A stretch of DNA of 32,000 nucleotides from Dickeya solani IPO 2222 (GCF_001644705.1 NZ_CP015137.1:3060001-3092000), one strand, 5' to 3'; positions 737 through 25,275 are shown, counted from the first letter of the stretch. Notes: generated by a model not told the origin, from the sequence alone. Numbers and translations are program-made.

Positions 737-1024
737 TTAGACTGATGCCTGGGGTTTATTGGCGGTATTGCGCATCAGTTTTTTACGATCAACCCAGGTA
801 TGGGTTTGAGGATCATAATAACGGCTGGGCCATATTTCTTCCGGCTTAACGCCTAATGCGTCGGCGATCAGCAATTCCCCTTTCGGCCAGGGGCGATATA
901 AAGCGTTTGCCAATGTGCTTGAACTTAATCCTGCTTCTCGTGAGACCGCTGAGAGTGATGTCCCTTTCTTCCTTAGTGCAGCAATGATATCGGCGGAATG
1001 CCAGTCCATTCTCCTTGCGCGCAT
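737..1024 (-). CDS. nlp: Ner/Nlp (SfsB)-family small DNA-binding transcriptional regulator
   Basis: The 95-aa product (DWHSADIIAALRKKGTSLSAVSREAGLSSSTLANALYRPWPKGELLIADALGV...IWPSRYYDPQTH) is near-colinear with E. coli Nlp/phage Mu Ner. A GAGGA Shine-Dalgarno lies 5 nt upstream of the ATG at 1024. Confidence 0.85.
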   Translation of the reverse strand: MRARRMDWHSADIIAALRKKGTSLSAVSREAGLSSSTLANALYRPWPKGELLIADALGVKPEEIWPSRYYDPQTHTWVDRKKLMRNTANKPQASV

Positions 1025-4535: not shown

Positions 4536-4564
4536 AGGCACTGCACCGCGGTGCCTGTTTTTTT
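4536..4564 (+). terminator. Rho-independent terminator of yfeX
   Basis: Stem caggcac (4536-4542) pairs with gtgcctg (4552-4558), followed by a T6 run (4559-4564). Confidence 0.75.
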
Positions 4565-4595
4565 GGCGCCGCCTGACGTCTCCCGGAGAGAGAAT

Positions 4596-5477
4596 GTGAC
4601 CACGCTTGAACACTGCGTCGGCAATACGCCGCTGATTAAATTACAACGTCTGGCTCAGCACACCGGCAGCGAGATCTGGCTGAAGCTGGAGGGCAATAAT
4701 CCGGCTGGTTCGGTGAAGGATCGAGCCGCGTTGTCGATGATCCAGCAGGCGGAACGCCGGGGCGAGATTACGCCGGGCGACACGCTGATTGAGGCCACCA
4801 GCGGCAACACCGGCATCGCGCTGGCGATGGTGGCGGCGATGAAAGGTTACCGGCTGCGTCTGCTGATGCCGGAAAACATGAGCCTGGAACGGCAGGCCGC
4901 GATGCGCGCCTATGGCGCGGAACTGCTGCTGGTCAGCCAACAGCAAGGGATGGAAGGGGCGCGCGATCTGGCCCGGCAGATGGCGCAGGCGGGCCAAGGC
5001 ACGCTGCTCGACCAGTTCAATAACCCGGATAACCCGCTGGCGCACTTCACCACCACCGGTCCGGAAATCTGGCGGCAGACACAGGGCCGCCTCACCCATT
5101 TCGTTTCCTGCATGGGCACCACCGGCACCATCACCGGCGTTAGTCGTTACCTGAAAAGCCAGAGCAAAACGGTTTGCACTGTCGGCCTGCAGCCGCAGGA
5201 CGGCAGCCAGATCCCTGGAATCCGTCGCTGGTCGCCGGACTATATGCCGGGGATCTTTCAGCCACAGCTGGTGGACCGGATTATGGATATGTCGCAGCAG
5301 GAGGCGGAAACTACCATGCAGCAACTGGCGCGGGTGGAAGGGGTGTTCTGCGGCGTCAGCTCCGGCGGCGCGGTGGCGGGGGCGCTACGTATCGCCGCCG
5401 AGCAGCCCGGCAGCCTGATCGTCACCGTGGTGTGCGATCGCGGCGATCGTTACTTGTCTACCGGTGTGTTTGGCTGA
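4596..5477 (+). CDS. cysM: Cysteine synthase B (O-acetylserine sulfhydrylase B)
   Basis: Near-colinear with E. coli CysM (TLEHCVGNTPLIKLQR...WLKLEGNNPAGSVKDRAALSMI...[16 protein letters not shown]...CDRGDRYLSTGVFG). GTG 4596 is preceded by GGAGAGAGA and aligns with the E. coli N-terminus. The upstream ATG at 4551 lies inside the yfeX terminator. Confidence 0.93.
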   Translation: MTTLEHCVGNTPLIKLQRLAQHTGSEIWLKLEGNNPAGSVKDRAALSMIQQAERRGEITPGDTLIEATSGNTGIALAMVAAMKGYRLRLLMPENMSLERQAAMRAYGAELLLVSQQQGMEGARDLARQMAQAGQGTLLDQFNNPDNPLAHFTTTGPEIWRQTQGRLTHFVSCMGTTGTITGVSRYLKSQSKTVCTVGLQPQDGSQIPGIRRWSPDYMPGIFQPQLVDRIMDMSQQEAETTMQQLARVEGVFCGVSSGGAVAGALRIAAEQPGSLIVTVVCDRGDRYLSTGVFG

Positions 5478-5529
5478 CGCGCTCGCGCGACGGCTGCTGA
5501 CAGGAGGTGTGCGGGAGGCGACGGCATAA

Positions 5530-5720
5530 GGCGCTTGGTTACGTCCCGCATTAACCGAAGCGGGTATCTGTGAACGAACCTGGCGTCGCAGGCAACTGTC
5601 GCCGGAGGACCGGCGTGCCAGTGCGGTCAGACCCCACCTGGCTAACAGATTAAGCGAGAAGGAAGAGCAGCAGATAAGTAACGACAACGCGTATGTGGAA
5701 TCGCTGTTCCAGGCGCTGAC
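5530..5720 (+). mobile_element. Relic of a DDE (rve-type) IS transposase with an internal deletion and no start codon
   Basis: The frame is open from 5530 with no initiator. It reads ...TEAGICERTWRRRQLSPEDRRASAVRPHLANRLSEKEEQQI (an HTH/N-terminal transposase-like segment) joined directly to SNDNAYVESLF (the conserved C-terminal DNxYxESxF transposase motif). The catalytic core between them is missing. Confidence 0.6.
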
Positions 5721-5918
5721 ATGTAGTGCTTTGATTGAATCGTGTCTCTGGACAGAAGGTATAGTAGAACTTCAGATGAGCCACATGGAAAAGAACAATG
5801 TTCGTGCCGCCTACACATTCTTGAACCGCATCGCCTGATGCTGCAATGGTGGGCCGATTTTCTGAATGCTAACCGGGATGGAATAATCAGGCCGCTTGAG
5901 TTTGCACAGCCAAAATAG
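5716..5918 (+). pseudogene. 3' relic of a P4/CP4-57-type tyrosine integrase, 5'-truncated and frameshifted
   Basis: The translation ...ALIESCLWTEGIVELQMSHMEKNNVRAAY stops at TGA 5836-5838. It resumes in the -1 frame as HILEPHRLMLQWWADFLNANRDGIIRPLEFAQPK*, with a stop at 5916-5918. This matches the conserved integrase C-terminus (..LSH...NxVRAAY......RRxMMQWWADYL). Confidence 0.7.
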
Positions 5919-6165
5919 AATGCTTCACAGGCCACAGGGAAAAGTGGCCTGAAATCGTAACAGCTCTGAATAACACCCGCTATTTTCATTCGCCTGTTAA
6001 TGCCCAGTCTTTTCCAGTGACTGAACCGACTTTCCCAAGATTATTCAATCCACTTAACGGGTTGAGAAATACTTACTGTTGACTCATCTGATAAAATATG
6101 TAGAAATCTTACTCTCACAGGGTTATGGATTTTGTGAAAACACATGGACACAGCGAGGGACTGAT

Positions 6166-6645
6166 ATGGCAAATCTTATTTATTTGAAGCTTACAGGTGA
6201 AAAACAGGGGCTTATATCTGCCGGATGTTCAACCGCAGACTCTATCGGTAATAAATACCAATCTGCGCACGAAGACGAAATTTTTGTCTATGAACTGATG
6301 AACCAGATAACAAGGGTAGATAATGTATCTTTACACCCCGTAGAAATCAGGAAACCTGTAGATAAATCCACACCACTTTTAGCTCAAGCATTGAATGATA
6401 ATGAAAAACTGAAATGTGAGTTTCTTTTTTACCGAACCTCTCCGTCAGGCGGTAATGAGCTCTATTTCAAAGTTAAGCTGAATGATGCCATCATTACAGA
6501 TCTTCGTTTCTTTTATCCCAATTCATTGACACATAATGAGATGCAGCCACAGGAAAATATCTCTTTCAAATTTGCATCAATCGAATGGGAGCATGTTGTT
6601 GCCCGTACTAGCTCTTATATATTGTGGAATAACGTAGAGTACTGA
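6166..6645 (+). CDS. hcp: Type VI secretion tube protein Hcp (Hcp1/TssD family), orphan copy
   Basis: The 159-aa product MANLIYLKLTGEKQGLISAGCSTADSIGNKYQSAHEDEIFVYEL...HPVEIRKPVDKSTPLL...FYRTS..GG.ELYFKVKL...SIEWEH has typical enterobacterial Hcp length and motifs. A GAGGGA Shine-Dalgarno (6152-6157) precedes ATG 6166; the ORF opens earlier at TTG 6079. The gene is AT-rich. Confidence 0.9.
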   Translation: MANLIYLKLTGEKQGLISAGCSTADSIGNKYQSAHEDEIFVYELMNQITRVDNVSLHPVEIRKPVDKSTPLLAQALNDNEKLKCEFLFYRTSPSGGNELYFKVKLNDAIITDLRFFYPNSLTHNEMQPQENISFKFASIEWEHVVARTSSYILWNNVEY

Positions 6646-6646
6646 T

Positions 6647-7480
6647 ATGACAACAGCTGTCTTACTTTATGGGTTTTATGATGAGAGTGAGCGACTAAGA
6701 AGGATAGCTCTTCTTGCTTCTTCTTTTTTCATTGAAGATAGAACCATTCGTATGGAGTATATTAAAGAGATAGATGATTTCATTAATTCACTCCGTTTGA
6801 AAATCACCTCTTCTACATCAGAATTTAGCGATCAGAATGCTATTTTAGAAGAGATAAGAAAAGAACGTGAATCCACAGAAAAAGAATATCAAAGATTAAG
6901 AGCAGGCGATTATATAAAATATATTGTTACCGATATCTTTGAAGACCAAGGTGTGTTGAAATACGCGAAAATTGCATCAGGTGTGGTTTCAGGTGGATTC
7001 CAGACATTTGCAGGATATAAACTAAATCAGTTTGGAAAAACGTTCCATATAAAACATTTTAAATCTTTTGGGATTTTACTAATAGCGCATGGCGCTAATA
7101 ATATGTACGAAGCGGCATCTCCGTTATTTAATGATGGAATACATAAATCTGGCACATTGAGAAATATATATAGGTATATTACCAATTCTTTTGGGTATAA
7201 CAACGATGATGGTGATTTACTCTATAGCGCAGGAGATCTTTCATTAACCTTATACGCTGCATTCAGAACACCAGTACTATTTGAAAATCCAAACCGCCTT
7301 GTATCCAAAGGTTTTATGGATAGTCCAAGAGCTATAAAATTATTCTACTACGTGAATAAAGATCACATTTCTAAATTTTCATCAGCAAGCAACTTGATGA
7401 AAATGTATATGGTCGGTAATTCGGCCAGAAAAGTTTACGCCGAATTCAAGGACGGAAATTACATCTATAGTAAAAATTAG
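6647..7480 (+). CDS. Uncharacterised 277-aa protein translationally coupled to hcp; candidate Hcp-dependent T6SS cargo effector. It resembles my recollection of the DUF4225 family, which is unverified
   Basis: The ATG at 6647 is 1 nt after the hcp TGA (6643-6645) and the composition is equally AT-rich. The N-terminus is charged and coiled-coil-like (EEIRKERESTEKEYQRLRAG). Gly/Ala-rich hydrophobic segments follow (YAKIASGVVSGGFQTFAGY; FGILLIAHGANNMYEAASPLF; LLYSAGDLSLTLYAAF). Confidence 0.6.
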   Translation: MTTAVLLYGFYDESERLRRIALLASSFFIEDRTIRMEYIKEIDDFINSLRLKITSSTSEFSDQNAILEEIRKERESTEKEYQRLRAGDYIKYIVTDIFEDQGVLKYAKIASGVVSGGFQTFAGYKLNQFGKTFHIKHFKSFGILLIAHGANNMYEAASPLFNDGIHKSGTLRNIYRYITNSFGYNNDDGDLLYSAGDLSLTLYAAFRTPVLFENPNRLVSKGFMDSPRAIKLFYYVNKDHISKFSSASNLMKMYMVGNSARKVYAEFKDGNYIYSKN

Positions 7481-7518
7481 CTTTCATTCACTACAAATGG
7501 AATATTTCAGACGCTAGA

Positions 7519-7908
7519 TTATTCCATCCGATACAACAATAACATGACTCTGAGAAACATCAATTTCAGAGTCATTTTCATGCTAATCTTGAAAAATACG
7601 GTTTTACTTTTAACAAAACAAATCATCATTACAATAAAAAGAAAAGAAAAAATCTTTAAGCTTTTCATCAAAACTTTATCTTCCAGGTAATCACCTATTG
7701 CAAAAAAAAGACATAAAGCAATAGTAATAACGATTCCGTCCCAGCATGAATACGCTGTTGAAAAAATATATTCCCGCAATGACTCTGCTGATTTTATATT
7801 CTTACTTTTTCTGTAAGGGTTTTCTTTAGTAGCCATATAATTTTTTTTGAGAACAAGCAACTCTTTCCTGGAAAGTCCTGTTTTTGCGATAAAATTCCGT
7901 TTGTTCAT
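7519..7908 (-). CDS. Small (129-aa) membrane protein of unknown function, convergent with the hcp cassette; candidate immunity protein
   Basis: This is a long ORF for such AT-rich, stop-rich DNA. An AAGGG Shine-Dalgarno lies 8 nt upstream of ATG 7908. The N-terminus is basic, followed by 2-3 hydrophobic helices (WDGIVITIALCLFFAIGDYL; IFSFLFIVMMICFV; LKLMFLRVMLLLY). Confidence 0.55.
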   Translation of the reverse strand: MNKRNFIAKTGLSRKELLVLKKNYMATKENPYRKSKNIKSAESLREYIFSTAYSCWDGIVITIALCLFFAIGDYLEDKVLMKSLKIFSFLFIVMMICFVKSKTVFFKISMKMTLKLMFLRVMLLLYRME

Positions 7909-7969
7909 TCTTGCTACCCTTTATCAAATAACCCAATAAAATAATTAATAATATTTTTCCTTCTTTTCT

Positions 7970-8065
7970 TTAAGTTTTATCTTTAAATTCCAGGTGCTTC
8001 TTTTTTAAAGAAGTAATTTCTTTGAAAGGAAGTCCTGATGTTAGTGTTAACTTCCGTTTATCCAT
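7970..8065 (-). pseudogene. 31-codon ORF resembling the N-terminus of the adjacent 129-aa membrane protein (truncated paralog)
   Basis: MDKRKLTLTSGLPFKEITSLKKKHLEFKDKT* compared with MNKRNFIAKTGLSRKELLVLKKNYMATKEN gives about 11 identities in the first 25 positions with no gaps. It lies immediately upstream on the same strand and is below the ORF-track length cut-off. Confidence 0.3.
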
Positions 8066-8476
8066 ATCTGTTCTATTCCATGACTTAGGTGTGATAAATA
8101 ACATGCTATGTTTATAGCACTTTCTAAGAATAGAAGCTAGCAGCACTCTTTGGCTTAATCCTCAGCTATTTAACCTCCCGCCGGGTCAATTCCTTAAAGC
8201 AGTTTCCCAGACTCATCTCTGCATTCGTCGCCGCTTCCTCAAACAATTTGCACAGCTAGGGGCTATACGAATTTGAACGGTCGGAAATTTACCCGTCATT
8301 GATTTCCTTGTTTCGCGTTTAGCAATTGATATAGGCGTACCAGACAGGGGCTAACTACAACGTCACCTATTCCTTTCCTGAAGGGGCAACGCATTGCGTT
8401 GTTCAAAACGCGAGCGTGTTGCCCTGCAATTCGAATTATTTAGGGGATACACAGCCATCAACTGCTATCCCGGCGG

Positions 8477-10423
8477 CTATTCCCGTTCCAGCGCGTGGAT
8501 CGGTTGCAGACGGGCCGCCCGCCGCGCCGGGAAGAAGCCGAAAATCACGCCAATCAGGCTGGAGCAGAAGAACGCCGCTACCATTGAGGTGGCGGAATAA
8601 AGGAACGCCACGCTGCTGACGCGGCTGGCGATTGCGCCTGCCAGCAATGACAGCACCACGCCCAATACCCCGCCGCACAGACACACCAGCACCGCCTCAA
8701 TCAGAAACTGCTGCATGATGTCGCCGGTACGCGCGCCGACCGCCATGCGTACACCGATCTCCCGTGTGCGCTCGGTCACTGACACCAGCATGATGTTCAT
8801 CACGCCGATGCCGCCCACAATCAGCGAAATCAGCGCGATGGCGGACACCAGCAGCGTCATGGTGGCGGTGGTCTGCCGGATGGTTTGACGGATGCTGTCG
8901 GTGTTCATGACGAAGAAGTCCTTGTTGCCGTGCTGGCGGGTCAGAACCTGGGTGATGCCCTGCTGCGCCACGCTCAGGTCGATGTTGTCTTTAACCCTTA
9001 CGGTGATGCTGCGCAGGTACGACTGGCCGACCATGCGGCGCATCACGGTGGTATAGGGCACCCAGACATTCAGGTTTTCATCGCTGCCGAAGCCGGACTG
9101 TTTGCGGGTGGCGACGCCGATGATGCGACAGGGTAGGGTGCCGAGAAAAATCACCTGTCCCAGCGGGTTCTCGCCGTTGGGGAACAGTTTATTGCGGGTG
9201 TTCTGATCGATGACCGCCTCCTGCGTCAGGCGTTCAACGCTGAGCGGCGAGAAACCGTTGCCTTCCGACAGAACATAGCCGCGCACGGTGAAGAACTGCT
9301 CGCCCACGCCGCTGACGCTGACCGAGACCGCTTTACTGGCGTAACGCAGCGTTACCGAGGTGGAGACGGTGGGCGTGACGCTGTGGATATAGGGTTGTTG
9401 CTCCAGCGGCCGCAGATCGTTAACCCGCAGCGTCTGAATGGCGGCGGAGCGCATATCGCCGAAATCCTTGCCGGGAAAGATTTCCAGCGTGCTGGTGCCC
9501 ATAGCGTTGATATGCTCCAGCACCTGCTGTTGCGAGCCTTTGCCGAGCGCCACCACCGACACCACCGAGGCGATGCCGATGATGATCCCCAGCATGGTCA
9601 GGAAGGTGCGCATCCGCTGGGCGTTCATGGCACGCAGCGCCATCCTGAAGGCATTCTGCAACCGGTCGTACCCGCTGGTCAGCGTTCTGGCCGGTAGCGG
9701 CGCTGAAGGCGTTGGGGTCGCCGGCGTCATGTCGTCGGCCGTTTTGCGGTCGGCCACGATTTCACCGTCGTGAATCTCGATGATGCGGCCGGCCATCCGG
9801 GCGATGCGCATATCGTGGGTGACCAGCACGATGGTGTGCCCTTGCTGATGCAGCTCGTGAAGAATCGACAGCACCTCCTCGCCGCTGGCGCTGTCGAGCG
9901 CACCGGTGGGTTCGTCCGCCAGAATCACCTGGCCGCCGTTGATCAGCGCGCGGGCGATGCTGACACGTTGCTGCTGCCCGCCCGACAGTTGGCTGGGCGA
10001 ATCCTGCAGGCGGTCGGCGAGGCCCAGTCTCGCCAGCAGGGCGGCGGCGCGCTGGCGGCGTTCGTGGCGAGACTGACCGGCATACACCGCCGGCATTTCC
10101 ACGTTGTCGCCGACGTTCAGGTCATTAAGCAGGTGATAACGCTGGAAGATGAACCCGAAGTGCTCGCGGCGCAACGCGGCAAGCTGGTCGTCATTCAGCG
10201 TCAGGGTGGAAACGCCGGCTACCTGATAATCCCCTTGCGTCGGTTTATCCAGACAACCGAGGATATTCATCAGCGTGGATTTGCCGGAGCCGGATGCGCC
10301 GACAATCGCCACCATTTCACCGGCTTGAATCGTCAGATTGATGTTTTTCAACACATCGACGCGTTGTTCACCGTTGATAAAGCTGCGGTGGAGCTGGCGC
10401 AGCGCTAGTAGAGGCGCGCTCAT
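8477..10423 (-). CDS. macB: MacB-type ABC transporter (fused ATPase/FtsX-like permease), macrolide/peptide export
   Basis: 648 aa, the same length as E. coli MacB and colinear with it ([45 protein letters not shown]-terminal [28 protein letters not shown]). Confidence 0.95.
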
Positions 10424-24621: not shown

Positions 24622-25275
24622 ATGAATCAGACTTTACTTTCCGAATTCGGTACCCCTGTCGAACGTGTTGAACGTGCGCTGGATGCGCTGCGCCACGGCC
24701 GCGGCGTAATGGTGCTGGACGATGAAGATCGTGAAAACGAAGGTGACATGATTTTCCCGGCCGAAACCATGACCGTTGAGCAGATGGCGCTGACCATTCG
24801 TCACGGCAGCGGCATCGTGTGCCTGTGTCTCACCGAAGAACGCCGCCAGAAGCTGGAACTGCCGATGATGGTGGAAAACAATTCCAGCCATTTTCAGACC
24901 GCGTTCACCGTCACGATTGAAGCCGCCGAAGGCGTCACCACTGGCGTATCCGCCGCTGACCGTCTGACCACGATTCGCGCCGCAACTGCCGATGATGCCC
25001 GCCCGAGCGACCTGAACCGCCCCGGCCATGTGTTCCCGTTGCGTGCGCAGCCGGGCGGCGTGCTGGCGCGCGGCGGCCATACCGAAGCCACCGTGGATCT
25101 GATGCGTCTGGCAGGGTTCAAACCGTTCGGCGTGTTGTGCGAATTGACGAATGACGATGGTTCTATGGCCCACGCGCCGGAAGTGATCGCCTTCGCGAAA
25201 CAGCACGCTATGCCGGTACTGACTATCGAGGATTTGGTGGCCTATCGCCAGGCGGCTGAGCGCAAAGCCAGCTGA
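24622..25275 (+). CDS. ribB: 3,4-dihydroxy-2-butanone-4-phosphate synthase
   Basis: 217 aa and colinear with E. coli RibB ([63 protein letters not shown]...). Confidence 0.97.

Follow-up and report, generated by a model that had tools for sequence, protein, structure and literature searches.

An AT-rich islet of Dickeya solani with an orphan hcp, a coupled DUF4225 gene and a convergent candidate immunity gene: a putative antibacterial Hcp auxiliary module

The 32,000-nucleotide (nt) stretch of the Dickeya solani IPO 2222 genome analyzed here (NZ_CP015137.1:3060001-3092000; hereafter the window) carries, between cysM and macB, an AT-rich islet of 2.4 kb with an hcp gene, a gene for a 277-amino-acid (aa) protein coupled to it and a gene for a small membrane protein on the opposite strand. 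What is a solitary hcp doing there, and do its neighbours form a toxin and immunity pair? An earlier note on this DNA had seen in the islet an orphan hcp together with a coupled effector gene and a gene for a membrane immunity protein, left behind by an immobilised insertion and dependent on a type VI secretion system (T6SS) encoded elsewhere, and this core reading fits every test that was run. We put the probability at about 0.82 that the islet is a horizontally acquired, DUF4225-type T6SS 'Hcp auxiliary module', by now fixed in the chromosome, which is antibacterial and works as proposed below. Its features are the following:

5509-5719, plus strand: relic of an IS3-family transposase gene, without a start codon, internally deleted and running in frame into the integrase relic
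5714-5937, plus strand: 3' end of a P4-type tyrosine integrase gene, corresponding to residues 358-424 of the 424 and interrupted by a frameshift and a gap of 5 codons
5981-6165, plus strand: left arm of the module, non-coding, upstream of hcp and travelling with the module; presumed to hold a promoter
6166-6645, plus strand: intact hcp (tssD) for an orphan 'auxiliary' Hcp of 159 aa
6647-7480, plus strand: DUF4225 gene, putative toxin and presumed T6SS cargo effector, 277 aa, 31.8 kDa, pI 8.9, no signal peptide
7519-7908, minus strand: candidate cognate immunity protein, 129 aa, pI 9.9, convergent on the toxin gene
7970-8065, minus strand: relic of a second immunity paralogue, reduced to its first 31 codons and a stop, inside the open reading frame (ORF) 7970-8146
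8066-8329, no strand: non-coding right arm, lying upstream of the immunity genes, conserved between insertion sites and presumed to hold their promoter

The proposal of a full-length Hcp was borne out by the profile check it had called for: PF05638 matched over all 129 of its 129 model positions (E = 5.8e-22) and TIGR03344 matched with E = 5.9e-59. Hcp chains of the Protein Data Bank (PDB) were recovered as well (6a2v, E = 1e-26; 3he1, E = 5e-25), and the protein is identical to that of D. dadantii 3937. The junction with the next gene reads TAC TGA T ATG, which places the toxin ATG 1 nt past the hcp stop and agrees, as do the coordinates of the 277-aa ORF, with the coupling described earlier. 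The suggested comparison of this 277-aa protein with DUF4225 was positive. PF13988 matched from model position 2 to 165 of 165 (E = 1e-61; score 207.6 bits, cut-off 25.9), and together with the family's conserved residues this full-length match makes the protein a member. Positions conserved across 71 homologues are G112, G116, G123, G142, H148, G149, N151, N152, Y154, E155, Y175, Y193, D197, F233 and D239, with the family-wide motif AHGxNNxYE (A-H148-G-x-N151-N152-x-Y154-E155). The standalone protein has, in addition, a conserved N-terminal region of its own of about 68 residues, and it is 99% identical to Dda3937_01417 of D. dadantii 3937.

The description of this protein as an uncharacterised effector did not stand, since the family has already been shown to include an antibacterial T6SS1 effector of Vibrio parahaemolyticus (PMC9765294). 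Most Hcp auxiliary modules of that species have a DUF4225 gene directly downstream of hcp, often next to a gene for a small protein with transmembrane (TM) helices and flanked by mobility genes (PMC9765294). One of them, Hcp1b-DUF4225^18764-Imm4225^18764, mediated T6SS1-dependent prey killing; the toxin was toxic only in the periplasm, where it caused lysis, and the small membrane protein rescued the cells (PMC9765294). A 2025 review gives the activity of DUF4225 only as 'cell lysis'. Module type, T6SS dependence and lytic action in the periplasm were thus published in 2022, and the islet is a new example and no new category.

The likeness to the module of V. parahaemolyticus CFSAN018764 is close in layout. 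In both, an hcp outside the T6SS cluster is directly followed by a DUF4225 gene of about 260-280 codons without signal peptide, with a small multi-TM gene adjacent, mobility genes nearby, variable synteny and a T6SS encoded elsewhere. No T6SS core family beyond hcp was found among the scanned ORFs of the 32 kb, in agreement with the earlier claim, although ORFs below 110 aa were not exhaustively scanned and a small PAAR gene is still possible. By sequence, the locus has every testable feature of an Hcp-DUF4225 auxiliary module. The differences lie in the sequences and in the immunity gene. The Dickeya toxin is about 25% identical to Vibrio-type DUF4225 homologues. The V. parahaemolyticus immunity protein has 89 aa and three TM helices and is encoded co-directionally, whereas its Dickeya counterpart has 129 aa and an N-terminal extension of about 50 aa, predicted to be cytoplasmic, and its gene is convergent and occurs, in this clade, in arrays of one to four with relics. 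The direction of the V. parahaemolyticus gene was deduced from coordinates in PMC9765294; co-direction was seen directly in a Vibrio-like locus (L098) and in Pseudomonas (L101).

The convergent membrane protein that had been described was recovered as the ORF 7519-7908, 38 bp beyond the toxin stop, with two hydrophobic segments. By hydropathy the protein starts with about 50 aa of basic character, continues with two TM helices that a loop of about 10 residues connects, and ends in a basic tail; the distribution of charges suggests that both termini are cytoplasmic and the loop periplasmic. The gene thus occupies the place of the adjacent small TM protein, but convergently, unlike the Vibrio and Pseudomonas type. 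Searches of Pfam and NCBIfam gave no family for it. Homologues of 127-139 aa stand convergent to the toxin gene in every examined copy of the clade, from Dickeya, Pectobacterium, Buttiauxella and Photorhabdus to a metagenome, and have in common the N-terminal motif M(D/N)KRxLILKSG(L/F)SxKELLxLKKN(Y/F), with two hydrophobic helices and a basic tail behind it. In the 129-aa protein, residues 1-45 (MxKRxLILKSGLSxKELLxLKKNY) form a conserved basic segment missing from the Vibrio-like and Pseudomonas downstream proteins compared; its best family match was a non-significant one to sigma-70 (E = 0.007).

The truncated copy of this protein's N-terminus noticed earlier was found again as 31 codons, from the ATG at 8065 to the stop at 7970, encoding MDKRKLTLTSGLPFKEITSLKKKHLEFKDKT. 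It matched the hidden Markov model (HMM) of the small-protein family with E = 1.2e-10. It is closest, with 79% nt identity, to the 127-aa immunity gene of a metagenome contig (L011), and it does not occur in the D. chrysanthemi and D. fangzhongdai copies.

How did these genes come to lie between cysM and macB? The G+C content is 0.63 in cysM (4551-5477) and 0.62 in macB (8477-10423, minus strand), with a profile of 0.62-0.66 across both, and falls to 0.29-0.40 from about 5940 to about 8150. By gene it is 0.379 for hcp, 0.339 for the 277-aa gene and 0.303 for the 129-aa gene. An estimate by eye of about one third proved accurate, with computed values of 0.342 for 5990-8160 and 0.374 for 5530-8220. 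Of the abrupt switch in composition that had been reported, the clear AT-rich patch between cysM and macB stands, but not the sharp edge: on the left the drop is stepwise, from 0.61 (5478-5713) through 0.48 (5714-5937) to the truly AT-rich part at about 5940-8150, with no jump at 5530. The right edge (8147-8476) has a G+C content of 0.48.

The comparison of occupied and empty junctions that had been proposed gave a clear result. The gap between cysM and macB is 3.0 kb in the window, whereas among the matches listed in a CysM-based contig scan the convergent neighbours lie only about 13-50 bp apart in the sister genera Lonsdalea, Brenneria, Pectobacterium, Samsonia and Chimaeribacter; no Dickeya locus was among these matches. 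The window DNA is 95-98% identical to D. dadantii 3937 (CP002038.1, 970973-987806).

The left edge carries what is left of mobility genes. Positions 5509-5719 align in two pieces with annotated IS3 family transposase genes at 75% DNA identity (blastn) and gave 67% over 49 aa in tblastn (E = 3e-10); the motif NDNAYVESLFQ is readable in the frame that starts at 5479. Positions 5714-5937 match the last 217 nt of 424-aa integrase genes with 72-76% nt identity in 3,357 E. coli genomes, and the translated relic is 67% identical to the E. coli integrase (E = 6e-29, BLASTP). The E. coli reference adjoins tRNA-Asn and has the domains Arm-DNA-bind_3, Phage_int_M and Phage_integrase. In the window only the equivalent of residues 358-424 remains, frameshifted, and a tRNA scan found no tRNA gene there; the remnant would thus be a relic and not a functional member of the P4-type integrases. 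A Pfam scan of the relic peptides gave no matches, and they were identified by blastn, tblastn and BLASTP instead. These matches uphold the description of a start-less transposase relic fused to a frameshifted P4-type integrase 3' end, and the destroyed mobility genes together with the empty junctions make the insertion an old and immobilised one, as had been supposed. At the same cysM/macB site of D. zeae, window positions 5494-5873 are missing and the integrase relic is reduced to its last 64 nt (5874-5937), which fits progressive decay. Searches for att-like direct repeats around the islet gave only short, chance-level matches.

The genes of the islet were also found elsewhere. The unit, consisting of hcp (159 aa), a DUF4225 gene (276-283 aa) and one to four convergent genes for proteins of 127-139 aa, recurs at five chromosomal sites:

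cysM / macB: D. dadantii and D. zeae, one small convergent gene (in D. dadantii also the 31-codon relic)
lysR / ABC transporter: D. chrysanthemi, D. fangzhongdai and the metagenome contig L011 (only the lysR side seen in L011), one small gene
GST / mutS: Pectobacterium polaris, two small convergent genes
DJ-1 / sugar ABC transporter: Buttiauxella gaviniae, two small convergent genes
cobT / eutC, with PirA-like genes beside the module: Photorhabdus, four small convergent genes

In every host the module is AT-rich (0.30-0.36 against 0.45-0.59 in the flanks). The left limit of homology to the copies at the lysR site falls at window position 5981 for D. fangzhongdai (L017), 6036 for L011 and 6045 for D. 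chrysanthemi (L014). The right arm is common to the lysR/ABC-transporter copies over 8152-8292 (79% identity) and up to 8329. Homology between sites thus spans about 5981-6045 to about 8292-8329, which delimits a mobile unit of about 2.3 kb with the integrase relic outside it. Mobility has left its record in the IS3 and P4-integrase relics, in the five insertion sites and in the empty junctions of sister genera. In Photorhabdus laumondii (L009/L010, 4801-9783), the four tandem immunity paralogues encode 133-139 aa, and the PirA-like genes lie on both sides (4801-5115 and 9136-9783).

Within the unit, the three proteins are not equally conserved. Identities to the Hcp, toxin and immunity proteins of the window are 94, 73 and 38% in L011, 87, 61 and 41% in P. 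polaris (33% for its second immunity gene) and 59, 41 and about 22% in Photorhabdus; the order Hcp > toxin > immunity held in the modules compared. In the comparison with the L011-type toxin, identity is 87-94% over the N-terminal half and 56-62% over the C-terminal half. The C-terminal half thus appears to diversify together with the immunity gene, as expected of a polymorphic toxin that co-evolves with its immunity protein. Between Dickeya species the ratio of nonsynonymous to synonymous substitution rates (dN/dS) is 0.035 for hcp (against D. zeae), 0.06-0.10 for the toxin gene and 0.23-0.32 for the immunity gene, with 0.035 for the housekeeping gene cysM. These low values indicate that all three genes are kept by purifying selection.

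A separate observation concerned synonymous divergence. Between Dickeya species (6166-7908 against L016, L014 and L017) it is about 0.65 in hcp and 0.70 in cysM, and 0.13-0.28 in the toxin and immunity genes, while nt identity climbs from 86-91% in hcp to 94-97% in the 3' half of the toxin gene. The low values for toxin and immunity may reflect more recent exchange between species or an effect of codon composition.

From this material we propose the following working of the module. The hcp and DUF4225 genes would be translated as a coupled pair, and the specialised Hcp would recruit or chaperone the 31.8-kDa DUF4225 protein. A T6SS encoded elsewhere in the genome would fire this protein into neighbouring Gram-negative cells, where it would damage the envelope from the periplasm and cause lysis, most likely by acting at or in the inner membrane. 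Protection of the producer and of kindred cells would fall to the 129-aa inner-membrane hairpin, which would be transcribed on its own from the opposite strand. With only about 10 residues predicted to be exposed to the periplasm, this protein probably neutralises the toxin at the membrane. As to history, the module may have reached the cysM/macB site on an element with a P4-type integrase, which was then ruined by an IS3 insertion and later deletions, and the 31-codon relic would be the remnant of an immunity gene with another specificity.

Several points weigh against this proposal. We infer T6SS-dependent lysis from the periplasm, and immunity to it, from a Vibrio homologue that is only about 25% identical and whose co-directional immunity gene has no detectable similarity to the 129-aa protein. 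Expression, secretion, toxicity and immunity of the module in Dickeya are accordingly putative. The T6SS machinery does not lie in the window, and its presence in this strain is deduced from D. dadantii 3937, the 95-98% identical reference, which has a T6SS and three hcp-vgrG-rhs loci with a VgrG required for Rhs-mediated inhibition (PMC4028081). The toxin models are only moderate and found no PDB counterpart, as detailed below; Dickeya-clade toxin helices are interrupted by charged residues, with a Kyte-Doolittle maximum of 0.85, and the phenotype of the Vibrio DUF4225 toxin resembled that of an amidase more than that of the membrane disruptor Tme1 (PMC9765294).

The role of the neighbouring Hcp as carrier of the toxin is likewise an assumption of the proposal. 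A protein of 31.8 kDa is large for an Hcp lumen, and the toxin may be too large for this one. In some copies hcp is damaged: it is frameshifted in D. fangzhongdai (L017, 7267-7742) and has lost codons ~30-75 in a D. chrysanthemi strain (L015, 7270-7607), while the DUF4225 gene (277 aa) and the immunity gene (129 or 130 aa) beside it are intact. A toxin and immunity pair can thus outlive its linked Hcp, which may not be strictly required. Furthermore, Hcp1b could not replace the canonical Hcp1 in Vibrio and did not support delivery alone (PMC9765294).

These observations are what keeps alive another explanation, in which the linkage reflects co-mobilisation or a supply of tube subunits and the toxin is loaded otherwise, for instance on VgrG or PAAR. 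The size of the toxin and the copies without a functional hcp fit this, as does the occurrence of DUF4225 fused to PAAR (P0082) and in the Rhs region of an E. coli strain; fusions to PAAR, VgrG, Hcp, Rhs and CdiA-type delivery domains have been reported (PMC9765294). We nevertheless consider it unlikely, since modules from Pseudomonas to Dickeya have kept the coupled hcp-toxin junction, the standalone DUF4225 protein has a conserved N-terminal region found only in this family and no genes for VgrG or PAAR adaptors lie nearby.

The damaged hcp copies would also be expected if the islet were a silent fossil of a dead island, kept quiet as AT-rich foreign DNA, in which the sole useful gene is the immunity gene, as a defence against relatives still firing the toxin. 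The destroyed mobility genes are in line with this, a scan of the islet for promoters and terminators gave nothing above shuffled expectation, and a literature search found no mention of its locus tags. Such a fossil is improbable, however, given that the three ORFs are unbroken both in the window and in strain 3937, that the coupled start is preserved and that dN/dS values of 0.035-0.10 for hcp and toxin point to selection on these proteins beyond the immunity gene alone. That the DUF4225 protein of this clade targets plant or insect cells, with a non-immunity role for the small membrane proteins, might be suspected from hosts that are plant pathogens (Dickeya, Pectobacterium) or insect pathogens (Photorhabdus), from the PirA-like toxin genes flanking the Photorhabdus module and from the induction of D. 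dadantii T6SS genes in planta (PMC11385963), but is very improbable in view of the one to four membrane-protein paralogues that are always linked to the toxin and diverge with it, a signature of self-protection, of the antibacterial action of the only family member tested (PMC9765294) and of Buttiauxella, which is no known pathogen.

Within the preferred reading of an antibacterial module, where would the toxin act? An action at or in the inner membrane, where the immunity protein would intercept it, is suggested by a glycine-rich helix that is of TM grade in homologues, by Phobius predictions and by immunity candidates that would hardly be exposed to the periplasm. The equivalent of helix 103-133 reaches TM-grade hydrophobicity in 28 of the 71 homologues, and entries of Data set S4 in PMC9765294 give two Phobius TM segments for DUF4225 proteins. 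In the Dickeya toxin itself, hydropathy stays below TM grade (grand average of hydropathy, GRAVY, -0.32; Kyte-Doolittle maximum of 0.85 over 19 residues), which predicts a soluble protein. The amidase-like phenotype in Vibrio weakens the membrane step, and the invariant polar motif could be catalytic. We hold membrane action as a tentative proposal, with somewhat less than even odds.

A more specific version would have the toxin of Dickeya, Pectobacterium, Buttiauxella and Photorhabdus act inside the target's inner membrane and be intercepted there, by helix-helix contact, by a separate family of hairpin immunity proteins whose genes are independently transcribed from the opposite strand, in the manner of pore-forming colicins. 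Specificity would switch through joint exchange of the toxin C-terminal half and the immunity gene, leaving relics like 7970-8065. This version is doubtful; if true, it would offer a first way into the mechanism of a widespread toxin domain.

Structure prediction gave an all-alpha protein of nine helices, with predicted local distance difference test scores (pLDDT) of 69.7 from 29 sequences and 73.2 from 71 sequences and a predicted TM-score (pTM) of about 0.45 (AlphaFold2). Residues 1-87 and 103-213 were modelled with good confidence, the last 60 residues with poor confidence. Foldseek searches of the PDB with both models returned generic helical bundles, G-protein-coupled receptors and BAR domains (best E = 1.0 and 1.7, TM-scores of 0.25 or below), and a profile search of PDB sequences with the toxin alignment found nothing below E = 0.2. 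The earlier note had been unable to place the protein in a known toxin fold, and neither search changed this.

The N-terminal 100 residues were also considered as a portable delivery domain and this was rejected. Ten representative clusters matched and none was shown to be non-DUF4225: all six longer matches that were scanned are DUF4225 proteins, two came from the earlier DUF4225 search and two are unscanned fragments of about 100 aa. With the segment found only in DUF4225 proteins, a portable Hcp-targeting domain has no support.

The arrangement of the immunity gene invites comparison with pore-forming colicins. Their immunity proteins (genes cai, cei and others) are reportedly small polytopic inner-membrane proteins, encoded on the opposite strand and transcribed separately, and the toxin is said to act from the periplasmic side. 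The likeness, an opposite-strand gene for a small membrane immunity protein, goes no further than gene layout. Neither sequence nor fold searches related the Dickeya toxin to colicin pore domains, and it lacks a hydrophobic hairpin of TM grade, so that it does not group with pore-forming toxins of the colicin or Tme type. Delivery would be by a T6SS and not by receptor and translocation domains, and the Vibrio homologue lyses cells instead of simply depolarising them.

Other toxin loci resemble the islet in part. With the DUF4225 domains at the C-terminus of polymorphic toxins it has PF13988 in common, a C-terminal half that varies with the immunity gene and a relic of displaced immunity; the Dickeya protein is standalone, whereas P0082 combines PAAR and DUF4225 and the copy in E. 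coli belongs to an Rhs region with ISAs1 elements on its flanks. The hcp-vgrG-rhs loci of D. dadantii 3937, as far as described from Koskiniemi et al. (2013) in PMC4028081, are also auxiliary T6SS toxin and immunity loci, horizontally acquired and variable between Dickeya species. According to the same description they have VgrG, large Rhs proteins with nuclease tips and cytoplasmic immunity, whereas the islet has neither VgrG nor Rhs, a toxin from a family that acts in the periplasm and a membrane immunity candidate.

More distant modules carry their downstream gene on the same strand as the toxin gene, whose stop it overlaps, and its product has 102-106 aa and two or three TM helices (Vibrio-like L098; Pseudomonas L100/L101); entries of Data set S4 of Jana et al. 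(PMC9765294) have the same layout in Enterobacter and Erwinia mallotivora. No sequence similarity was detected between the 129-aa family and the Vibrio-like or Pseudomonas downstream proteins. What appears particular to the present clade is therefore its convergent immunity candidates, in arrays of one to four and without detectable similarity to the co-directional ones of Vibrio and Pseudomonas.

For the biology of soft rot, Dda3937_01417 and its neighbours would be an unannotated putative antibacterial weapon beside the known Rhs and contact-dependent inhibition (CDI) arsenal of a model pathogen. Both soft-rot and insect-pathogenic Enterobacterales have conserved the module, with its distinct convergent immunity family in arrays. 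This natural series of toxin C-terminal variants, matching immunity genes and a relic could guide the mapping of the interface between toxin and immunity protein and the search for the target of DUF4225.

Some minor observations concern hcp and DUF4225 genes. Thirteen nt at the hcp start (6160-6172, ACTGATATGGCAA) are nearly repeated at the junction of hcp stop and toxin start (6641-6653, ACTGATATGACAA), which could be chance or the trace of a lost upstream gene that was once coupled to hcp in the same way. In Pseudomonas (L100/L101, 4519-7496) two hcp-DUF4225 modules stand in tandem, adjoined by HNH and Bro-N genes. The second DUF4225 gene is split into pieces of 80 and 47 aa beside a retained 105-aa three-TM gene, which marks a decayed duplicate module. 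In E. coli CUVET16-465 (L102, 4760-5593) a 277-aa DUF4225 gene has an ISAs1-family transposase gene on either side and follows closely on a gene with an RHS core domain and an imm11 immunity gene. No hcp lies within 5 kb of it, and it represents a different delivery context for the same domain.

Elsewhere in the window, the other scanned ORFs are housekeeping or regulatory genes (cysK, ptsI, crr, cysZ, zipA, ribB, tehB, norVW/norR-like genes and a fumarase gene). A second AT-rich patch lies at 1006-1650 (G+C content 0.28-0.37 around 1050-1500), in a part of the window that has no alignment to D. dadantii 3937. Its flanks, an HTH_35 gene (737-1024, minus strand) and a LuxR-type gene (1386-2075), are common to both genomes. 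Over this patch the window has 644 bp and strain 3937 has 1,148 bp, which include a 137-aa acetyltransferase gene (L002, 2291-2704) missing from the window, and the sequences suggest a strain-specific indel. The sole Rfam match of the window, unrelated to the islet, is an ordinary flavin mononucleotide (FMN) riboswitch (RF00050, 24335-24496; 113 bits, E = 7.6e-26) upstream of ribB (24622-25275), which encodes DHBP synthase.

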